Assembly (NCBI GenBank): GCA_963778465.1
Contig: CAVZUK010000003.1
Coordinates: 581,328 to 605,327, forward strand
DNA from: an uncultured Actinomycetes bacterium
GTDB taxonomy: Bacteria; Actinomycetota; Acidimicrobiia; Acidimicrobiales; RAAP-2
Length of the DNA: 24,000 bases
Direction: 5' to 3'
Shown in pieces: positions 8,265 through 23,378 of this stretch. The notes beneath the pieces are model-generated. The model worked only from the letters and a program-made list of their open reading frames with translations. It was not told where the DNA came from and ran no database searches. The first letter of the stretch is position 1. The number at the start of each line of letters is the position of its first letter. A program made the translations under genes and the position numbers.

Positions 8265-9109
8265 GCTCGCCGACGTCGGTGTACTTCCGCTCCGGCGATC
8301 TCCGGATGCACGCCGCGCACCACCGCGGCGCCGGAGGGCTGCCCCTGGTCGTCGTGCCGGGCATCACGACCCCGGCGGGGGCGTTCGCCTTCGCCGCCGA
8401 ACGGCTGGCGGCCTTCGCGGGCGACGTCTACGTCCTCGACATGCGCGGTCGCGGCTACTCGGAGCGGTCGCCCTCGGGCACCCACCGGGCGTCCGACTAC
8501 GCGCAGGACGTCCTCGCGCTCGTCGAGGACCGTGGGCTCGAGGGCGCGGTGCTGGTCGGCCATTCGCTGGGAGCCCGGGTGGTGGCGGCCGCCCGGGCGC
8601 GCTTCCCGGGCTGCGGATCGGGGGTCGTGGCGATCGACCCGCCGATGTCGGGCCCCGGCCGCCGGCCCTACCCGATTCCGCTCGACCGCTTCATCGACGG
8701 CATCCACGGGGCCCGTTCCGGCCTCGGCGAGCAGCAGGCTCGCGAGCACTACCCGACCTGGACCGACGACCAGGTGGCCGCCCGTGGGCAATGGCTCGGC
8801 TCGTGCGACGAGATCGCCGTCGTCGAGAGCTACTCCTGGTTCCACCTGGAGGACTTCCCCCCGGTCTGGAAGGAGGTGGAGCCGCCGGCACTCCTCCTCT
8901 ACGGCGACGAGAGCCCTGTCGTGACGGCGAGCGACGCGGCCGAGCTCGGGGCCGCCAACCCGCGTGCCGCCCTCGCCTCCGTGGCGCACAGCGGCCACAT
9001 GATCCCGTGGGACAACCTCGAGGAGACCCTCCAGCAGATCGAGCTGTTCACCACGAAGCTGGTGACCGACACGACGCACCCGACGACCAACCGACCAGGG
9101 GGTACGTGA
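8261..9109 (+). CDS. Alpha/beta-fold hydrolase (candidate N-formylmaleamate deformylase-type, NicD-like role)
   Basis: 282 aa. PLVVVPGITT (oxyanion region), nucleophile elbow GHSLGA, C-terminal catalytic His context AHSGHMIPWDN. GTG 8261 overlaps the permease TGA (GTGA, 8261-8264). The specific NicD-like role is inferred only from the neighbouring NicX-like gene. Confidence 0.8.
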   Translation: MSSPTSVYFRSGDLRMHAAHHRGAGGLPLVVVPGITTPAGAFAFAAERLAAFAGDVYVLDMRGRGYSERSPSGTHRASDYAQDVLALVEDRGLEGAVLVGHSLGARVVAAARARFPGCGSGVVAIDPPMSGPGRRPYPIPLDRFIDGIHGARSGLGEQQAREHYPTWTDDQVAARGQWLGSCDEIAVVESYSWFHLEDFPPVWKEVEPPALLLYGDESPVVTASDAAELGAANPRAALASVAHSGHMIPWDNLEETLQQIELFTTKLVTDTTHPTTNRPGGT

Positions 9110-16308: not shown

Positions 16309-17808
16309 GTGCAACGACAGGAACGCGATCAGGCGCTGCATCCGGCGGACCAAGCCTTCGTGGCGATGGACCGCCGGAACAGCCCGATGAACATGTCCGT
16401 GCTGGTGATGCTCGACGAGTCGCGCGGCTCGCTGGAGGAGTGGCGGCGGTATCTCGACTCCCGGCTCGACCGGGTGCCCCGGTGGCGACAGAGGGTGGTC
16501 ACCCTGCCCCTCGGCATCGGCCGGCCGGTCTGGGTGGATGACCAGGAGTTCGACATCGCCAACCACGTCCAGGGCGTCCGGCTGGACCTCGACGGTGACG
16601 ACGTCCTCCACGAGCTGGCGGCGCGTCTGCACGGTGCGAGGCAGTCGATGCGGCACTCGCCGTGGCTCATCACGGTCGTGGACCAACCCTCTCGCCAATC
16701 CCTGGCCATACGGGCGCACCACGTCCTGGCCGACGGGGTCGGGAGCGTGGAGATCGGGCAGGCGATCTTCGACCTGGCGGGACTTCAGGTCGAGGACGGC
16801 CCTGCGGATGGCTCCGCCGAGGAGTCGCCTCCGGCTGCCGCCGTGGAGCCCGCGGCGTCGTCGGGTGCGGCGGAGCGGCTACGGGCCGACATCGTCCAGA
16901 ACGTCGAGGTGGTGCGCTCGCTCGCGTCGGATCGGATGGCGATGGTCCCGAGGGTGGTGGAGACCGTCCGGCGGCTCCCCACCCGCCTGCAGTCGAGTGC
17001 GCTCACCGGCGTGCTCGAGCTCGCCAAGGGCGTGGTCACCGGGCCGGTCGTGGCGCTCGGCTCCCCCTTCGCCCGGCGGGTGGGCCCCGGTCGGCACTTC
17101 GAGGGGCTCCACTTCCCGTTGGATCAGGTCAAGCGCATCAAGGACGCCGCCGGGTGCAAGGTGAACGACGTGGTCCTCGCGGTCGTGACCTCCGGGGCGC
17201 GGGCCGTCTTCGACGTCCACGGCCTGCCCGACCGCTCGCGCCTCCGGATCGCCGTGCCGGTCGACGTGCGCCAACCCGAGGACCCGACCTTCGGCAACTA
17301 CCTCTCGGTCCGGCGGATCGAGGCACCGATCTCCCCCATCCCCAGCCTCGCCCACGTCTCGAGCGTGGCCGACGCCGGGCGAGCCTCGGTCGAGGGCGAG
17401 ATCGATCTCAGCTTCCACGAGTTCATGAACATGGCGGAGCTGCTCCCGCCGTTGGCCGTCCGCACGATGGCCCGGGCGGTCGCCCGGCTCCCGCTCTTCG
17501 ACGTCTTCGTCTCGAACATCCCCGGACCACCGCCATTGAGTGTCCGAGGCGCGAAGGTCGTCGACATCATTGGCAACCTCCCCTCGGGACCCCGCACCCC
17601 GATCGCGGTCTGTGCCTGCAGCTACGACGGGACGATGTCGATCAGCGTGGTCGCCGACGACAGGGGCCAAGACGATGCGTCCACCCTCCGGGACGCCATG
17701 GCGGCTGCCTTCGACGAGCTCCGCGCCGAGGCCGACGAGAGGCTCGCCCCTGCCGTCAAGGGCAGGGGCAAGCGCACCGATCGCGAGCCGGTGTCACCCC
17801 GGGCCTGA
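16309..17808 (+). CDS. WS/DGAT-family wax ester synthase / diacylglycerol O-acyltransferase
   Basis: Catalytic HHxxxDG motif (IRAHHVLADGVGS), N-terminal LHPADQAFVAMD...MNMSVLVMLD, and a C-terminal DUF1298-type region (NDVVLAVVTSGARAV...VSNIPGPP). I prefer GTG 16309 (GGAGGGAGGG at 16291-16300, 8-nt spacing). ATG 16270 is an in-frame alternative. Confidence 0.85.
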   Translation: MQRQERDQALHPADQAFVAMDRRNSPMNMSVLVMLDESRGSLEEWRRYLDSRLDRVPRWRQRVVTLPLGIGRPVWVDDQEFDIANHVQGVRLDLDGDDVLHELAARLHGARQSMRHSPWLITVVDQPSRQSLAIRAHHVLADGVGSVEIGQAIFDLAGLQVEDGPADGSAEESPPAAAVEPAASSGAAERLRADIVQNVEVVRSLASDRMAMVPRVVETVRRLPTRLQSSALTGVLELAKGVVTGPVVALGSPFARRVGPGRHFEGLHFPLDQVKRIKDAAGCKVNDVVLAVVTSGARAVFDVHGLPDRSRLRIAVPVDVRQPEDPTFGNYLSVRRIEAPISPIPSLAHVSSVADAGRASVEGEIDLSFHEFMNMAELLPPLAVRTMARAVARLPLFDVFVSNIPGPPPLSVRGAKVVDIIGNLPSGPRTPIAVCACSYDGTMSISVVADDRGQDDASTLRDAMAAAFDELRAEADERLAPAVKGRGKRTDREPVSPRA

Positions 17809-19077
17809 CCTCCGGCGCACGATCGCGTCCACCACGGCCCGCGCCACGAGCCGCTTGTCGGCCAGGTCGACGGGCTGCTCGCTCCCGTCGGCACCGATGA
17901 TGACGACGGCATTGGTATCGCCCTCGAAGCCGACGCCGGGCTGAGAGACGTCGTTCGCCACGATGAGGTCCACGCCCTTGCGGCGGAGCTTTGCCGCCGC
18001 GTTGTCGTGCAGGTCGTTGGTCTCCGCCGCGAAGCCGACGAGCACCTGCCCGGGCCCTCGTCGCTCGCCCAGGCCCGCCAGGATGTCCGGTGTCGGCTCG
18101 AGGACGAGGTGGGGGACCCCGTCGGCCTTGCTGATCTTGGTCGCCGCTGCGGCCTTGGGCCGGAAGTCGGCCACGGCGGCGGCCATCACCACCACGTCCG
18201 CCGAGGCGCTGCGGGCCGATATCGCACTCTCCATCTCCGCTGCCGTGTCGACGCGCACGATCTCGATCCCCGTCGCCGTCGGCAACGACACCGTCGTGAT
18301 CAACGTGACCAGGGCGCCCCGCGCGGCCACCTCGTCGGCGATGGCATGACCCTGCTTGCCCGACGACCGGTTGCCGACGAAGCGAACCGGGTCGATGGGC
18401 TCTCGGGTGCCCCCGGCGCTGACCAGCACCCTCGCTCCGGCCAGGTCGTGTCGCCGCGGTTCCTCGCCCGGAGCCGCGGCCGGGAGGGCGGCCACCAGCG
18501 CGGCCAGGACGTCCTCCGGTTCGGCCAGGCGCCCGGCACCCGAGTCCCCGCCGGCCAGACGCCCGACGCCGGGGGGCACGATGTGGACACCGCGGCGCCG
18601 GAGGACCTCGAGGTTGTCCACCACTGCGGGGTGCTCCCACATCTCCGTGTGCATGGCCGGGCAGATCACGACCGGCGCCCGCGTCGCGAGGAGCGTCGCG
18701 CAGAGGAGATCGTCCGCCAGACCGTGGGCGTATCGGGCTATCAGATGTGCGGTGGCCGGCGCAACGAGGATGACGTCCGCGCTCTGGCCGAGGTGGGTGT
18801 GGGGGATGGGATCCGCGTCATCGAAGAGGGAGCGGCGAACGGGCTCGGAGGCCAGCGCGGAGAAGGTCACGTCGCCGACGAAGCGGCCGGCCTCGTCGGT
18901 GAGCACCGGGACGACGATCGCGCCGGCGTCCACCATCCGGCGACAGAGCTCGACCGCCTTGTAGGCGGAGATCCCCCCGGTGACACCCAGCACGATGCGC
19001 CGACCGAGCAGCTCGGCGAGCTCCTGCCCGGCAGGGTCCGAGGAATCCGGGATCGGTCCGTCGTGGTCGTTGCTCAC
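17794..19077 (-). CDS. coaBC: Bifunctional phosphopantothenoylcysteine decarboxylase / phosphopantothenate-cysteine ligase
   Basis: 427 aa. N-terminal flavoprotein domain (RIVLGVTGGISAYKAVELCRRM, VILVAPATAHLIARYAHGLADDLL, PAMHTEMWEHPA) and C-terminal CoaB domain (VLVSAGGTREPIDPVRFVGNRSSGKQG, AAAVADFRP, GFAAET). Its 3' end overlaps the convergent WS/DGAT 3' end by 15 nt. Confidence 0.95.
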   Translation of the reverse strand: MSNDHDGPIPDSSDPAGQELAELLGRRIVLGVTGGISAYKAVELCRRMVDAGAIVVPVLTDEAGRFVGDVTFSALASEPVRRSLFDDADPIPHTHLGQSADVILVAPATAHLIARYAHGLADDLLCATLLATRAPVVICPAMHTEMWEHPAVVDNLEVLRRRGVHIVPPGVGRLAGGDSGAGRLAEPEDVLAALVAALPAAAPGEEPRRHDLAGARVLVSAGGTREPIDPVRFVGNRSSGKQGHAIADEVAARGALVTLITTVSLPTATGIEIVRVDTAAEMESAISARSASADVVVMAAAVADFRPKAAAATKISKADGVPHLVLEPTPDILAGLGERRGPGQVLVGFAAETNDLHDNAAAKLRRKGVDLIVANDVSQPGVGFEGDTNAVVIIGADGSEQPVDLADKRLVARAVVDAIVRRRSGPG

Positions 19078-19168
19078 GCACTGCCCCCTCGGGTTCGACG
19101 CAACGGCTCAGTGCGGCGATGATCCCACAGCCGCGTTGACCGGTGCCATCGGCGGCCTCGCGCTCGGG

Positions 19169-20029
19169 TCACCGCAGCGGCTCGAGCACCCGGGCGAGCG
19201 GCTCCATCACGGAGGGGGACAGGGGCGGCATCAGGTAGACGATGGCGAGGTCCAGCCCCTCACCGGCGAGCGCGTCGACCTGCTCGGCGGTCTTGACGAG
19301 GTCGTCGTCGAATCCCGAGGCCAGCCAGACGTGGCTCGAGAGGGTGATCTCCCCCGGGTCCCGCCCGACGTCCGCGCAGTGGGCGTGCAGGACGTCCCGC
19401 TTGCGTGCGAAATCCTCCGGCGTTCCGCCGAGGAAATTCCAGTGCTGGGCGAAACGGGCGGCGGTGCGCAGCGTCCTTCGCTCGCCGTTGCCGCCGACGA
19501 CGATCGGCGGGTGGGGAGTCTGGCGAGCCTTGGGCTCGCAGCGGGCGTCGGCCATCCGGTAGTAGGCGCCGGAGAAGTCCGTGGTCCGCTGCGAGAGCAG
19601 CCCGACCAGTACCTCGCAGGCCTCCTCGAACCGGTCGCTGCGCTCTCGGGGGCTTCCGAGCTCGATGCCGTAGGCGGAGGACTCCTGCTCGTTCCAGCCC
19701 GCGCCGACGCCGAGCTCGAGGCGGCCGCCCGAGACGATGTCGATGGTGGCGGCCATGTTCGCGAGCACGGCCGGGTTCCGGTACGGGATGCCCGTCACGA
19801 GGGTGCCCAGGCGTAGCCGGCGGGTCGCCTGGGCGAGCGCGGCGAGCATCGTCCACCCCTCGAGGCAGGGACCGCCGGGATCCGGCTGCCCCCTCGGCGA
19901 CCAGATGGGGTAGAAGTGGTCGAAGAGCCAACCCGACTCGTAGAGGTCGATGCCGTCGGCCTCCCTCCACACGGCCAGGATCTCTTCCCAGGTGGTGTCG
20001 TGGTTGGCGGTCTTGAACGCGAAGCGCAT
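19169..20029 (-). CDS. Luciferase-like monooxygenase (LLM) class, probable F420-dependent oxidoreductase
   Basis: 286 aa from ATG 20029 (GAGGAGG upstream). MRFAFKTANHDTTWEEIL...GWLFDHF...LGTLVTGIPYRNPAVLANMAATIDIVSGGRLELGVGAGW is typical of the small LLM/F420 TIM-barrel class. It is embedded in a 790-aa composite ORF that is not a single gene. Confidence 0.85.
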   Translation of the reverse strand: MRFAFKTANHDTTWEEILAVWREADGIDLYESGWLFDHFYPIWSPRGQPDPGGPCLEGWTMLAALAQATRRLRLGTLVTGIPYRNPAVLANMAATIDIVSGGRLELGVGAGWNEQESSAYGIELGSPRERSDRFEEACEVLVGLLSQRTTDFSGAYYRMADARCEPKARQTPHPPIVVGGNGERRTLRTAARFAQHWNFLGGTPEDFARKRDVLHAHCADVGRDPGEITLSSHVWLASGFDDDLVKTAEQVDALAGEGLDLAIVYLMPPLSPSVMEPLARVLEPLR

Positions 20030-20095
20030 CGTGCCTCCTCGCCTCTCGTGCGTCGCGGGTTGGGACGCAGTGCCGTCTCCCGGCATCATGGCATC

Positions 20096-20494
20096 GTGAC
20101 CGATCGCGCGACGCTGCGCCGATGGCTGCGGGCCTACGAGGACGCCTGGCGAGCGCCCGGCACGGAGACCCTGGCAACGCTCTTCACGGAGGACGCGAGC
20201 TACCTGCACTCTCCGTACGAGGAGCCCGTCTCGGGTCTCGAGGCGATCCGCCGGATGTGGGAGCGCGATCGTGGCGGTCCCGACGAGGTCTTCACGTTCG
20301 CCGCGGAGATCGTCGCGGTCGACGGGTCGGTGGCCGTCGTCCGTGCCGAGGTCCGCTACGGCGATCCGGTCCGTCAGGAGTACCGGGACCTCTGGGTCCT
20401 GCGGTTGGGGGCCGACGGGCGCTGCAGCGAATTCGAGGAGTGGCCCTACTGGCCGGGTCGCCCCTACGTCCCCGATGCCGAGTCGTCCGGCTGA
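20096..20494 (+). CDS. NTF2-like / SnoaL-like domain protein
   Basis: 132 aa from GTG 20096. LRRWLRAYEDAWRAPGTETLATLFTEDASYLHSPYEEPVSGLEAIRRMWE...VAVVRAEVRYGD...YRDLWVLRLGADGRCSEFEEW has the alpha+beta cone pattern of SnoaL/DUF4440 proteins. No clear Shine-Dalgarno sequence, so it may be leaderless. Family call is moderate. Confidence 0.6.
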   Translation: MTDRATLRRWLRAYEDAWRAPGTETLATLFTEDASYLHSPYEEPVSGLEAIRRMWERDRGGPDEVFTFAAEIVAVDGSVAVVRAEVRYGDPVRQEYRDLWVLRLGADGRCSEFEEWPYWPGRPYVPDAESSG

Positions 20495-21055
20495 GTCCCA
20501 CGGCCGCGGGATCCCGCCCCGAGCTCGGCGAGGATGGAGCGGGTGGCCGGGGGGATCTCCTGCTCGCTGCCATCGGGCATCCGCCGAGCTCCCGAGCCGG
20601 CGAGCGTCTCGACCTCTTCGACCGCCGGCCACCACAGCTCGCTGACCTCCACTGGGTCCGGCGATGCCGCGAACTCCGGGTCGCTCGACCATCCCAGTAC
20701 CGGCGTGAGGACGTACGCACCGCCGGTGCGCGGCGACAGGTGGCCGACGATCGTCACCGCCTCCGGCGCGAGGCCCGTCTCCTCCCGTGCCTCCCGCAGG
20801 GCGGTCGCGGTCGGGTCGGTGTCGCCCCGCTTTCGCCGCACCACCCGGGAAGGTCCAGGCGCCCGGGAAGGTCCGCATCCCCTGGCTGCGACGAGTGAGG
20901 AGCACCCGTGGGCCGCGGCGGTCCGGTGCAGCGTCGCCAGCCGGCGGACCGCTCGAGAGGAGGACCAGGACCGCGGCTCGGGGCCGTTCGTCGGCGGGGC
21001 CGGGTCCGTCACCCGACCGGGTCGACCGGGCCAGGGCGGCGAGCCACGGAGGCGG
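20464..21055 (-). pseudogene. NudL-like (CoA pyrophosphatase-type) Nudix hydrolase, reading frame broken by a 1-nt frameshift inside the Nudix box; in frame with the upstream ArsC domain
   Basis: The N-terminal half is in the ArsC frame: PPPWLAALA...PRAAVLVLL...GPRVLLTRRSQGMRTFPGAWTFPGG (ends at 20840). The C-terminal half is in the +1 frame: GDTDPTATALREAREETGLAPEAVTIVGHLSP...YVLTPVLGWSSDP...DPVEVSELWW (TD begins at 20820, stop at 20464-20466). The 19 nt between them (20821-20839, containing a C4 run at 20825-20828 and a T3 run) is one base too long. Confidence 0.7.
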
Positions 21056-21454
21056 CAGGAGATCCTCCAGCAGCCCGGCGGCGCGTCGCTCGATCTCGTC
21101 GCGGATGGGCCGGACCTCTTTGGTCGACAGCCCTGCGGGGTCCGGTAGGTCCCAGTCCACGTACCGCTTCCCTGGACAGACGGGGCAGGCGCCCCCGCCT
21201 CCCATCGTGACGATGACGTCGGCCTGCCGGGCCATCTCGTCGGTGAGCTGGCGCGGCGACCGTTGGGAAAGGTCGATCCGCCTTTCCCTCATGACCTCTA
21301 CGACGGCGGGATCGATGGCCTCGCCCGGCGAGGTACCCGCCGAGAGGACCACGAGACGACCGGCGGCGAGTCGTTCGAGGATGGCTGCGGCCATCTGGGA
21401 CCGGCCGGCGTTGTGCCTGCAGAGGAAGAGGACGGTGGGCCGGCTCGCGGTCAT
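21056..21454 (-). CDS. ArsC-type arsenate reductase / low-molecular-weight protein-tyrosine phosphatase domain (no stop codon before the Nudix region)
   Basis: 133 aa from ATG 21454 (GGGGGAGG upstream). CX5R(S) P-loop VLFLCRHNAGRSQMAA, VLSAGTSPG, DVIVTMGGGGACPVCPGKRYVDWDLPDPAG, IRDEIERR. The frame stays open past the end of the domain. Confidence 0.8.
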
Positions 21455-21533
21455 GGGAAGACCTCCCCCTTGATTTTGGGGCCGTATTTGGCTCTGCGAC
21501 CACACTCTGGGACTGCCGTGCAGCAAGAATGGC

Positions 21534-23378
21534 ATGATCAAGCCGGTGTCCCGACGTCCCCGTGCCGATCCAGAGCGTTACCCCGCCATCGAGGACCACG
21601 CGGTGATCGGCGACCTGCACACAGTCGCCCTGGTAGCCACCGATGGCACGATCGACTGGTGCTGCCTCCCGCGGTTCGACGCCCCAGCGGTCTTCGCGTC
21701 ATTGCTCGATGCCGAGCGAGGAGGGGCCTTTTCGGTCGCCTGCGACGCGTTGAGGACCAAGCAGCAGTACATGCCCGATTCCAACGTCCTCGTGACGAGG
21801 TTCCTGGGCGAGCACTCCGTGGGCGAGGTCATCGACTTCATGGTCCCTCATGACCGTGGTCACCTCGTCTCCGCACACTCCAACGTGCTCGTTCGCCGAC
21901 TTCGCGCCGTGCGAGGGACCGTGGCCTTTCGCGTCAACTGCCGTCCCGCCTTCGACTTCGGTCGGGCGGAGCATTCCGTCCATCCTCTCGAACACGGAGG
22001 GGTGCTCTTCGAGGGAGCGGGCGTGGAGATGGTCCTTCGGAGTACGCACCGGCTCTCCGTCGAGGGTCCGGCAGCAACGGCGGACCTCAGTTTGCGCTCG
22101 GGTGAAGGCGTCGATCTCATCCTGGAATGGGGTGGTCGGATCCGCCCAATGGTCGACCACGAAGCGGACCTGGCGTACGAGAGGACCCTCGCCTTCTGGA
22201 GAGGTTGGTTGCGTCGCTCTCGCTACCAGGGTCGCTACCGGGAGATGGTGGAACGTTCGGCCCTCGTGCTGAAACTCCTCGTCTATCAACCGACGGGTGC
22301 CTTGGTCGCCGCACCGACGACGTCGCTACCCGAGCTCCTCGGGGGCGGACGGAACTGGGATTACCGCTACACATGGATTCGCGATGCCGCCTTCACCCTC
22401 TATGGCCTCATGCGCCTGGGTTTCGTCGACGAGGCGGCGGCCTTCATGGGCTGGCTCGAAGACCGGTGCCGGGAGGCGCCACCCGAGCACGGACTGCAGG
22501 TGCTCTACAGGATCGACGGCAGCCCCGAGGTGCCCGAGATGGTTCTCGACCATCTCGAGGGCTATCGGGGATCGCGACCCGTCCGCGTGGGAAATGCCGC
22601 CGCCGACCAGCTCCAAATCGATATCTACGGGGAGCTGATGGACTCGGTCTATCTGTTCAACAAGCACGGTCACCCGATCGCTTACGACCTTTGGGTGGCC
22701 CTCTCGCGGCAGCTGGACTGGCTGGAGAAGCACTGGGAGCAACCGGACGACGGGATCTGGGAGACCAGGGGAGGCCGTCGGCGGTTCACCTATTCGGCCC
22801 TGATGACCTGGGTGGCCTTCGAGCGCGCCATGAGGATCGCCCGGCAGCGTGGTCTGCCTGCCCCCATCCTGCGTTGGCGTGACGCTGCCGACAGCGCCTA
22901 CGCCTCGGTGCAGGAGGCCGGATGGAATCCGTCCCGCCGCTCCTACGTCCAGCACCCGGACACCACGGCGCTCGACGCCTCGTTGCTGGTGATGCCTCTC
23001 GTGAAATTCGCCGGCCCGAGCGATCCGCGGTTCTTGGCCACGCTCGACCGGATCAGCGAGGAGCTCGTGACCGACAGCCTGGTCCGGCGCTACGAGACGG
23101 ACGGCTCCGACGGGATCGACGGCGACGAGGGCACGTTCAATCTCTGCTCGTTTTGGTACGTCGAGGCGCTGACTCGGGCCGGCCGGATCGGCGAGAGCCG
23201 CTACGTCTTCGAGAAGATGCTCACGTTCGCCAACCACGTCGGCCTCTTCGCAGAGGAGATCGGTCCGGCCGGGGAGGCCTTGGGCAACTTCCCCCAGGCC
23301 TTCACCCATCTGGCACTGATCAGCGCGGCGGCCAACCTCGACCGGGCTCTCTCCGATCGCTCCCACGCACTCCTTTAG
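21534..23378 (+). CDS. Glycoside hydrolase family 15 protein (glucoamylase / actinobacterial trehalase-like)
   Basis: 614 aa. N-terminal YPAIEDHAVIGDLHTVALVATDGTIDWCCLPRFDAPAVFASLLD, catalytic-domain motifs NWDYRYTWIRDAAFTLYGL, GIWETRG, DASLLVMPL, EGTFNLCSFWYVEAL, PQAFTHLALISAA. Confidence 0.9.
   Translation: MIKPVSRRPRADPERYPAIEDHAVIGDLHTVALVATDGTIDWCCLPRFDAPAVFASLLDAERGGAFSVACDALRTKQQYMPDSNVLVTRFLGEHSVGEVIDFMVPHDRGHLVSAHSNVLVRRLRAVRGTVAFRVNCRPAFDFGRAEHSVHPLEHGGVLFEGAGVEMVLRSTHRLSVEGPAATADLSLRSGEGVDLILEWGGRIRPMVDHEADLAYERTLAFWRGWLRRSRYQGRYREMVERSALVLKLLVYQPTGALVAAPTTSLPELLGGGRNWDYRYTWIRDAAFTLYGLMRLGFVDEAAAFMGWLEDRCREAPPEHGLQVLYRIDGSPEVPEMVLDHLEGYRGSRPVRVGNAAADQLQIDIYGELMDSVYLFNKHGHPIAYDLWVALSRQLDWLEKHWEQPDDGIWETRGGRRRFTYSALMTWVAFERAMRIARQRGLPAPILRWRDAADSAYASVQEAGWNPSRRSYVQHPDTTALDASLLVMPLVKFAGPSDPRFLATLDRISEELVTDSLVRRYETDGSDGIDGDEGTFNLCSFWYVEALTRAGRIGESRYVFEKMLTFANHVGLFAEEIGPAGEALGNFPQAFTHLALISAAANLDRALSDRSHALL

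Follow-up and report, generated by a model that had tools for sequence, protein, structure and literature searches.

In the actinobacterial protein MutT1, a Nudix pyrophosphatase is joined to a phosphomonoesterase of the histidine-phosphatase type that acts on the Nudix product. Among the ArsC arsenate reductases of the low-molecular-weight phosphatase (LMWP) type, Cg_ArsC1' has three catalytic cysteines, C88, C162 and C166, and Cg_ArsC2, which is without the Cys pair, works with mycothiol (PMC6514093). ArsC domains are also known as parts of fusion proteins, namely ArsR-ArsC, ACR3-ArsC, aquaporin-ArsC, GNAT-ArsC and a fusion with the three-helix bundle PF21234 (PMC6514093; Pfam columns of our protein search). 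Here we analyze a gene in which an ArsC-type domain is followed directly by a Nudix hydrolase of the coenzyme A (CoA) pyrophosphatase, or NudL, type. It lies at 20464..21454 on the minus strand of a 24,000-nucleotide stretch, called the window throughout, of contig CAVZUK010000003.1 (assembly GCA_963778465.1, an uncultured bacterium of the Acidimicrobiales). The source is a metagenome-assembled genome of an actinobacterium (4.8 Mb in 5 contigs, 70% G+C, 88.6% complete and 5.6% contaminated), labeled G000 below. G001 denotes a genome of the same genus, L208 a third relative, and L047, L209 and L210 are loci on the European Nucleotide Archive (ENA) assembly ERZ25039538. A sequence-only reading of the window had proposed that the two domains are fused in frame and that the ArsC-type domain may act on CoA-related substrates instead of arsenate.

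One gene in two assemblies

In the window sequence, the frame that opens at the ATG at 21454 encodes an LMWPc domain (PF01451, residues 8-129 in a Pfam profile search), and the ArsC/LMWPc-derived domain as a whole takes up residues 1-133 (21056..21454, minus strand; PF01451 E=1e-23). The same frame reads on, stop-free, into PPPWLAALA...RVLLTRRSQGMRTFPGAWTFPGG, which is the N-terminal part of a Nudix protein. The domain junction (...DLL/PPPW..., 21050..21061, minus strand) is without linker, stop or in-frame start codon, and no stop codon was found around it in any of the three frames of the window sequence. A Shine-Dalgarno-like GGGGGAGG (21462..21469, minus strand) stands 7 nt before the ATG. 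The Nudix domain of the window copy is split over two frames: profile positions 15-41, including LLTRRSqgmRtfpGawtFPGG, lie in the ArsC frame, and positions 40-122 (GDTDPTATALREAREETGL onwards, with REAREETGL) lie in an open reading frame of another phase at 20464..21012. The shift occurs at 20831..20833 (minus strand), where the coding strand of the window has AAA (TTT on the plus strand) and a sibling assembly has AA, in the Lys208 codon AAG. This one extra base breaks the Nudix box GGAAK(R)GDTDPTATALREAREETGL (20770..20845, minus strand); the intact form has 329 amino acids (aa) and a stop.

The sibling assembly was reached by an exact-protein look-up of the neighboring GH15 protein, which led to an independent 538-kb contig of ERZ25039538 (L047), an assembly 99.7% identical to that of the window. 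There, positions L047:2932-3921 are called as one 329-aa gene with both PF01451 (E=2.6e-23) and PF00293 (E=3.7e-17), exactly the product that the sequence-only reading had foreseen after repair of the frameshift. The junction is identical to that of the window, and the DNA differs from the window by 3 substitutions in 1121 nt and by one A fewer (GCG-AAG-CGG vs. GCG-AAA-GCG-G). Because the same junction and a called 329-aa gene are present in an independent assembly, and because L208 carries a diverged form of the junction, we conclude that the fusion of ArsC and Nudix in one gene is real. The proposed in-frame fusion, with neither a stop nor a start between the domains, is thus borne out by the window sequence and by the independent assembly.

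We compared the two assemblies over a longer region. They are 99.5-99.8% identical over 29 kb, with 29 single-nucleotide polymorphisms (SNPs) in 9.8 kb, and they differ by four non-triplet indels, at window positions 8504, 11628, 14112 and 20831. A three-way comparison with G001 showed that the first three are private to ERZ25039538 (+1, +1 and -2, respectively) and that the indel in the Nudix region, at 20831, is the only one private to the window assembly; G001 agrees with the unshifted version at each of the four. The indel at 8504 lies inside an alpha/beta-hydrolase reading frame of a hydroxypyridine operon, which is continuous in the window assembly and from which the ERZ25039538 call recovers only 186 aa. 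The extra base at 20831-20833 is absent from three sequences, ERZ25039538, G001 and L208. Private non-triplet indels between the assemblies thus amount to about 1 per 7-10 kb, and both assemblies seem to carry sporadic consensus errors. Given this density of private frame-breaking indels between near-identical populations, the frameshift private to the window assembly is probably a long-read consensus error.

The alternative is that the extra A is real and the window copy a true pseudogene, a very recent null allele, in which case no working Nudix enzyme would come from the locus. Three points favor it. The extra base sits in a run of just two or three A and not in a long homopolymer; the assemblies come from different populations, as the SNPs show; and the gene evolves unusually fast in the genus. 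Between G000 and G001, the ratio of nonsynonymous to synonymous substitution rates (dN/dS, or omega) is 0.41 for the Nudix gene with an aa identity of 71%, which makes it the fastest gene of the neighborhood and puts it beyond all 97 neighboring orthologue pairs (median omega 0.147, none reaching 0.40; median identity 90.6%). Against a null allele, three of the four private non-triplet indels are in the other assembly, one of them inside the alpha/beta-hydrolase frame, a pattern that suits consensus errors. Further, the G000 Nudix half carries 2 unique changes at columns conserved in outgroups, compared with 4 unique to G001, and so shows no extra decay. The frameshift load estimated from G000-G001 indels and from the phase of third-position G+C content was about 10 per 313 kb for each genome, though several of these lie at gene ends and make weak evidence. 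We therefore regard a null allele as somewhat unlikely.

An assembly chimera that joined two separate genes, a thought invited by a 5-contig metagenome-assembled genome with the completeness and contamination given above, is hardly credible, as the junction is repeated in the independent assembly and recurs, diverged, in a short-read Logan contig (L208) of another run, and as all three frames are stop-free near it. Programmed frameshifting was rejected: no slippery heptamer was seen by eye, and all three relatives are without the extra base.

The shift has a side effect on gene calling. In the window, a 790-codon open frame spans 19169..21541 (minus strand) and takes in the ArsC domain, the Nudix N-terminus and the rest of the Nudix domain out of frame. 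It also runs antisense through a SnoaL-like gene and then enters an LLM oxidoreductase gene in frame. This frame is an artefact of 70% G+C combined with a single-base shift and is biologically meaningless, and a gene caller could easily output it as a single giant protein. The case is a warning that, where an assembly is GC-rich and built from long reads, one-base shifts and very long open frames should be checked independently.

Three states of the locus and the reach of the fusion

The G001 genome is collinear with the window at about 88% nucleotide identity. At the corresponding locus it has a divergent GH15 gene, a stand-alone Nudix gene of 199 aa, a convergent SnoaL-like gene and an LLM oxidoreductase gene, and it has no ArsC. 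The 80-nt region between the fusion gene and the divergent GH15 gene in the window is homologous to the upstream region of this stand-alone Nudix gene, and the homology reaches as far as the start codon. The G001 gene begins GTG ACC GCG CCG CCC TCA TGG; homology with the window covers the upstream region and the first three codons, is interrupted by a gap, and resumes from CCG CCT CCG TGG. The window has 390 nt beyond G001 at this place, which are codons 4-133 (21056-21445; blastn break at C3:602383/602773).

The third relative, L208, shows a different state. It was found as a 137-aa fragment (P0243) in a search of 1.84 billion cluster representatives; the Logan contig that carries it is 1.5 kb long and shows the same neighbors. 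L208 retains the 5' part of the ArsC region (MSANRPTVLFPCPHNAGRSQ...RIDLS), with L11P and G40R in the P-loop region, and then has a 127-nt non-triplet deletion by which residues ~65-107 are lost and the frame is shifted; the Cys relay and the acid of the DP motif are removed with them. After the deletion, the C-terminal helix of ArsC is in frame with PPPW and an intact Nudix domain, and a new in-frame ATG is present five codons ahead of PPPW. Taken together, the genus shows three states: an intact fusion, an eroded ArsC and no ArsC.

The direction of change can be read in two ways: either the common ancestor of the G000 species and L208 gained an ArsC piece by insertion, or G001 lost the ArsC part of an older fusion by deletion. 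Codons 1-3 of the G001 gene (M-T-A) are a typical ArsC N-terminus, and this start fits either a deletion in G001 or an insertion guided by microhomology. The comparison of the three taxa has no root; its branches measure 66 (G001), 55 (L208) and 32 (G000). Between G000 and L208, the synonymous divergence (dS) of the ArsC remnant (L208:394-651 vs. window 21056-21454, 92 codons) is 0.19 and that of the Nudix half is 0.375, on small counts. The lower value could mean that the ArsC piece is younger than the rest of the gene, or that it was exchanged between lineages. We also observed that G001 has an extra ArsC at C5:2270755-2271216 (within L024/L025), which is 49% identical to the fused domain and stands at one end of a segment of about 5 kb that has no G000 counterpart, and a further ArsC at C5:2479977; the ars gene content thus differs between the G000 and G001 species.

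We searched for the fusion outside this genus. NudL-type matches were present in 57 of the 80 other genomes of the same family, at about 40-50% identity and in open frames of ordinary stand-alone size. None of the 12 family homologues that were extracted and aligned carried ArsC-like sequence; each starts at or before the PPW segment. ArsC homologues in the genomes compared lie at coordinates apart from the NudL-type genes, and those read at their loci in G004 and G008 are stand-alone arsC genes of about 138 aa that adjoin a MIP channel gene. With the read-through of the window as the query against 5.8 billion sequences, no protein covering both halves was found among the best 120 of 1506 matches. 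The best 120 matches of the Nudix half were all Nudix-only, with no LMWPc domain among them, and many are named CoA pyrophosphatase by NCBI. The intact protein as the query gave no other fusion in the top 150 of the 1.84 billion cluster representatives; of the matches in two stretches, only the fragment P0243 reached the Nudix half. A 111-residue query spanning the junction retrieved ArsC C-termini only and no fragment crossing the junction. Finally, no Nudix homologue was present within 3 kb of 160 ArsC loci, which were collected by pattern scans of genome and metagenome contigs and are dominated by the universal HNAGRSQM motif.

Several matches that looked like fusions were rejected. P0242 and P0244, which matched the intact protein in two stretches, are tandem LMWPc proteins; the long matches in G004 and G008 (query 3-215, for example) are spurious read-through over stops past an ordinary arsC; the long G016 match contains four TGA stops; and P0374 (241 aa, one stretch at query 9-201) is an ArsC with a low-complexity tail and no Nudix domain. 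As a separate observation, the closest Nudix homologue from outside the genus (L035, G096:C62:100323-103724; FPGGATDPTD type, 38-45% identity) closes an open frame of 700 codons that resembles a carbon-nitrogen hydrolase in its upstream part, and is either a candidate fusion or a high-GC open frame.

These results show that the fusion is restricted to one species, in two assemblies, and that the architecture is not a conserved family in the databases searched. The literature searched describes no ArsC-Nudix fusion, as the sequence-only reading had also held. That reading had further named the outcome that would speak against it, in which orthologues are always separate proteins and the read-through is an assembly artefact: orthologues outside the species do stand alone, but the read-through is no artefact of assembly.

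The gene neighborhood is the same in the relatives as far as it was seen. The fusion gene is flanked by the divergent GH15 gene and the convergent SnoaL-like gene, and the LLM oxidoreductase gene and coaBC follow. No arsR, acr3, arsB or aquaporin gene was found near the fusion locus, in keeping with the earlier statement that ars genes are lacking there. The coaBC gene (Flavoprotein and DFP domains) follows the Nudix region downstream on the same strand at a distance of about 1.4 kb, with the luciferase-like oxidoreductase gene between them and a convergent WS/DGAT gene beyond; coaBC and the LLM oxidoreductase gene are at window ~17800-20030 (minus strand), as called in L209:16838-19073. This CoA-related neighborhood with coaBC is conserved in ERZ25039538. 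G001 has the Nudix, SnoaL-like and LLM oxidoreductase genes in the same order, probably with coaBC after them. The fusion gene and the convergent SnoaL-like/DUF4440 gene share about 31 nt at their 3' ends (window 20464-20494), an overlap that G001, L208 and the ENA assembly show too.

The two halves and their possible roles

The ArsC half scores 83-85 bits against PF01451 (cut-off 23.2; residues 8-129, profile positions 1-144), and its best matches are from genomes of the Acidimicrobiales and Acidimicrobiaceae, where the organism itself presumably belongs. Both the CX5R(S/T) loop, C12-RHNAG-R18-S19, and the acid motif D104-L-P-D106-P are present. The P-loop CRHNAGRS (21398..21421, minus strand) thus keeps CX5R-S with Cys12, Arg18 and Ser19; at residue 13 it has Arg for the usual Val, and all 10 of the same-family or same-order homologues printed read CVHNAGRS or CVHNSGRS. 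The best solved relative of residues 5-128 is Cg_ArsC1' (3T38, E=5.6e-31), and in this alignment its C88, C162 and C166 map to Cys12, Gly86 and Cys90 of the fused domain. The change is part of the segment GGGGACPVCP (21173..21202, minus strand), which reads GCGDACPVYP in homologues, so that Cys86 and Asp88 are both Gly here and Tyr93 is Cys, giving CPVC.

A column audit of 119 homologues showed that C86 is 100% and D88 99% conserved. Of the 46 columns with a conservation of 95% or more, the fused ArsC deviates at 4 (S41T, N48D, C86G and D88G), and 93 of the 119 homologues deviate at none. S41T and N48D are common to L208, so both would be older than the split between G000 and L208. Because the counterpart of Cg_ArsC1' Cys162, which is the first resolving cysteine, is lost together with the neighboring Asp, the ArsC half would be unable to run the Cys-Cys-thioredoxin relay; with Gly at the Cys162 position, the three cysteines required of a thioredoxin-coupled LMWP arsenate reductase are not all there. 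For the same reason canonical arsenate activity of the ArsC half is unlikely, and to this extent the earlier proposal that the domain does not act on arsenate finds support. The family models do not help here: the domain falls below the cut-offs of NCBIfam NF010053 (63.5 bits, cut-off 215) and TIGR02691 (58.3 bits, cut-off 174), and canonical ArsCs of the same family likewise fail at 69-73 bits, so these models cannot tell members of the clade apart. At C3:549287, in another part of the G000 genome, lies a gene for a canonical three-Cys ArsC.

In the intact form, the Nudix half matches PF00293 at 63 bits (cut-off 21.1; residues 181-284); in the window this match is split over the two frames. 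Residues 134-329 match the CoA pyrophosphatases 1NQY/1NQZ, NUDT7 and NUDT11 (9NXM) with E=1e-12 to 2e-15. Directly upstream of the Nudix box, LLTRRSQGMRTFPGAWTFPGG (20840..20902, minus strand) fits the NuCoA-type motif LLTxR[SA]x3Rx3Gx3FPGG, which we take to be the PROSITE NUDIX_COA motif and which is conserved in G001, L208 and the NudL-type homologues of the family. The best NCBIfam model is the CoA pyrophosphatase model NF007980, at 68.3 bits and below its cut-off of 134; the G001 orthologue scores 66.8 bits and is also below it. Set against same-family homologues, the Nudix proteins of the genus are short: they have no N-terminal leader and lack about 25 residues ahead of the C-terminal helix. 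The Nudix box has Asp as its first acidic residue, in contrast to the Glu of the same-family homologues aligned; E. coli NudL presumably has Asp at this position as well. By homology, we infer that the Nudix half would hydrolyze CoA or acyl-CoA at the pyrophosphate bond, with 3',5'-ADP and (acyl-)4'-phosphopantetheine as products. The gene is equally fast in all three lineages.

We propose the following explanation of the locus. A stop-less piece of 130 codons from a thioredoxin-type arsC sits in frame after codon 3 of a NudL-type Nudix gene and before the codons for its N-terminal PPPW, so that one 329-aa protein would be expressed with the upstream region and ribosome-binding site that belong to the Nudix gene. 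The ArsC half would then supply the protein start in the G000 species. The Nudix half would be the part kept by selection, since it is intact in all three lineages and is the sole survivor in two of them. The ArsC half is rated a passenger because a thioredoxin relay appears to be beyond it, no arsenic-related genes surround it and the relatives do without it. Read in this way, the Nudix half would be the working enzyme and the ArsC half a dispensable, eroding N-terminal appendage and not a partner enzyme, a reading to which we give about an even chance.

Several observations weigh against the ArsC half being a mere appendage. Its CX5R-S loop, its DP motif and 42 of the 46 highly conserved columns are intact. 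The polarizable changes at conserved ArsC positions since the split from L208 are mostly on the L208 side, by our own reading of small counts. The dN/dS of the ArsC remnant (0.43) does not exceed the values for the Nudix half (0.38-0.45); the ratio does not separate a passenger from a partner, and it does not show the ArsC part to be freer to change than the Nudix part. Finally, the three substitutions of the relay loop (Cys to Gly, Asp to Gly, and Tyr to Cys, which creates CPVC) could reflect directed remodeling and not decay.

The main rival is a two-step enzyme, in which the ArsC domain, stripped of its redox relay, would act as a cysteine phosphomonoesterase on the Nudix product (3',5'-ADP or 4'-phosphopantetheine) or on the 3'-phosphate of CoA. 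Cys12, Arg18, Ser19 and the DP acid are kept and only relay residues are lost; the Nudix half is of the CoA-pyrophosphatase type; coaBC lies nearby on the same strand; and with no linker and no separate Nudix start, both halves would always be co-produced. Phosphatase activity can be measured for the S. aureus pI258 ArsC, and a Nudix enzyme paired with a phosphatase has a precedent in mycobacterial MutT1. However, G001 has no ArsC domain and L208 only a destroyed one, yet both retain the Nudix domain; no conserved fusion or gene neighborhood was found in the databases searched; and the ArsC domain has S41T and N48D at near-invariant sites and Arg for Val in the P-loop. We consider a two-step enzyme unlikely. 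It is likewise doubtful that the ArsC domain has reverted to a plain cysteine phosphatase that takes the phosphate off 3',5'-ADP or 4'-phosphopantetheine in tandem with a CoA pyrophosphatase and that, together with coaBC, it forms a one-protein step of CoA turnover or salvage. The sequence-only reading had suggested cooperation of the ArsC domain with the Nudix domain on CoA-related substrates, and the comparison gives this no support, with the domain deleted in G001, broken in L208 and joined in no conserved fusion or neighborhood elsewhere. A functional link between the halves is thus compatible with the sequence and unsupported by the comparative data, and is neither shown nor excluded.

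A further possibility is that the ArsC half reduces arsenate by another route, either with mycothiol and mycoredoxin and the P-loop Cys only, or through the new Cys90/Cys93 pair of CPVC, the fusion to Nudix being incidental. LMWP-type ArsCs without the Cys pair do work with mycothiol, as in the case of Cg_ArsC2 (3RH0), which the domain matched with E=2e-15, and a new Cys stands three residues past Cys90. But by sequence the domain belongs to the three-Cys thioredoxin clade and not to the mycothiol clade, 3T38 being its best match; arsR, acr3, arsB and aquaporin genes are missing nearby, whereas the same-family ArsCs of G004 and G008 adjoin a MIP channel gene; a canonical ArsC is present elsewhere in the genome; and the domain is lost in relatives. 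This route is very improbable.

Comparison with described systems

Taken together, the locus is a variant, confined to a single species, of domain families already known; it is an oddity of gene evolution and not clearly a new enzyme, and its chief interest is as a small example of how a fused domain is gained and lost. If the ArsC half is a passenger, the genus offers a natural example of the birth and death of a fusion, with the intact, internally deleted and cleanly removed states side by side. If it were a working phosphatase, the protein would be a new two-step CoA-degrading enzyme and a case of an arsenate reductase reverting to phosphatase chemistry, relevant to Nudix enzymes, CoA turnover and enzyme evolution. 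What is known of arsenic resistance is unchanged either way, as an ordinary ArsC is encoded elsewhere in the genome.

The described ArsC fusions share with this gene the ArsC clade and the habit of joining ArsC to other domains. Their partners are arsenic-related or widespread and are conserved across genera, and in most of them the ArsC is C-terminal with all three cysteines kept; here, in contrast, the partner is a Nudix domain, the ArsC is N-terminal and apparently redox-dead, and the arrangement occurs in one species. Cg_ArsC1' of Corynebacterium glutamicum (3T38) resembles the ArsC half in its fold family, its CX5R-S loop, its second relay cysteine (Cys166, which is Cys90 here) and its DP motif. 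The fused domain differs from it by Gly at Cys162, Gly at the adjacent Asp, Arg for Val in the P-loop and a new Cys at +3, and also in reading stop-less into Nudix with no ars genes nearby, whereas 3T38 has an unrelated N-terminal extension of about 80 aa.

For the Nudix half, the nearest systems are E. coli NudL (NF007980), D. radiodurans DR1184 (1NQY/1NQZ), NUDT7 and plant NUDT11 (9NXM), with which it shares the CoA motif and the Nudix box. Unlike these CoA pyrophosphatases, it falls below the NF007980 cut-off, is short and fast-evolving (omega ~0.4), and carries an LMWPc domain at its N-terminus. A parallel in design is mycobacterial MutT1; NCBIfam NF052459 gave only a faint match, at the level of the Nudix domain. 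MutT1 has the opposite domain order, a phosphatase of the SixA-like RHG fold and not of the LMWP fold, and 8-oxo-guanine nucleotides as substrates, and it is conserved genus-wide.

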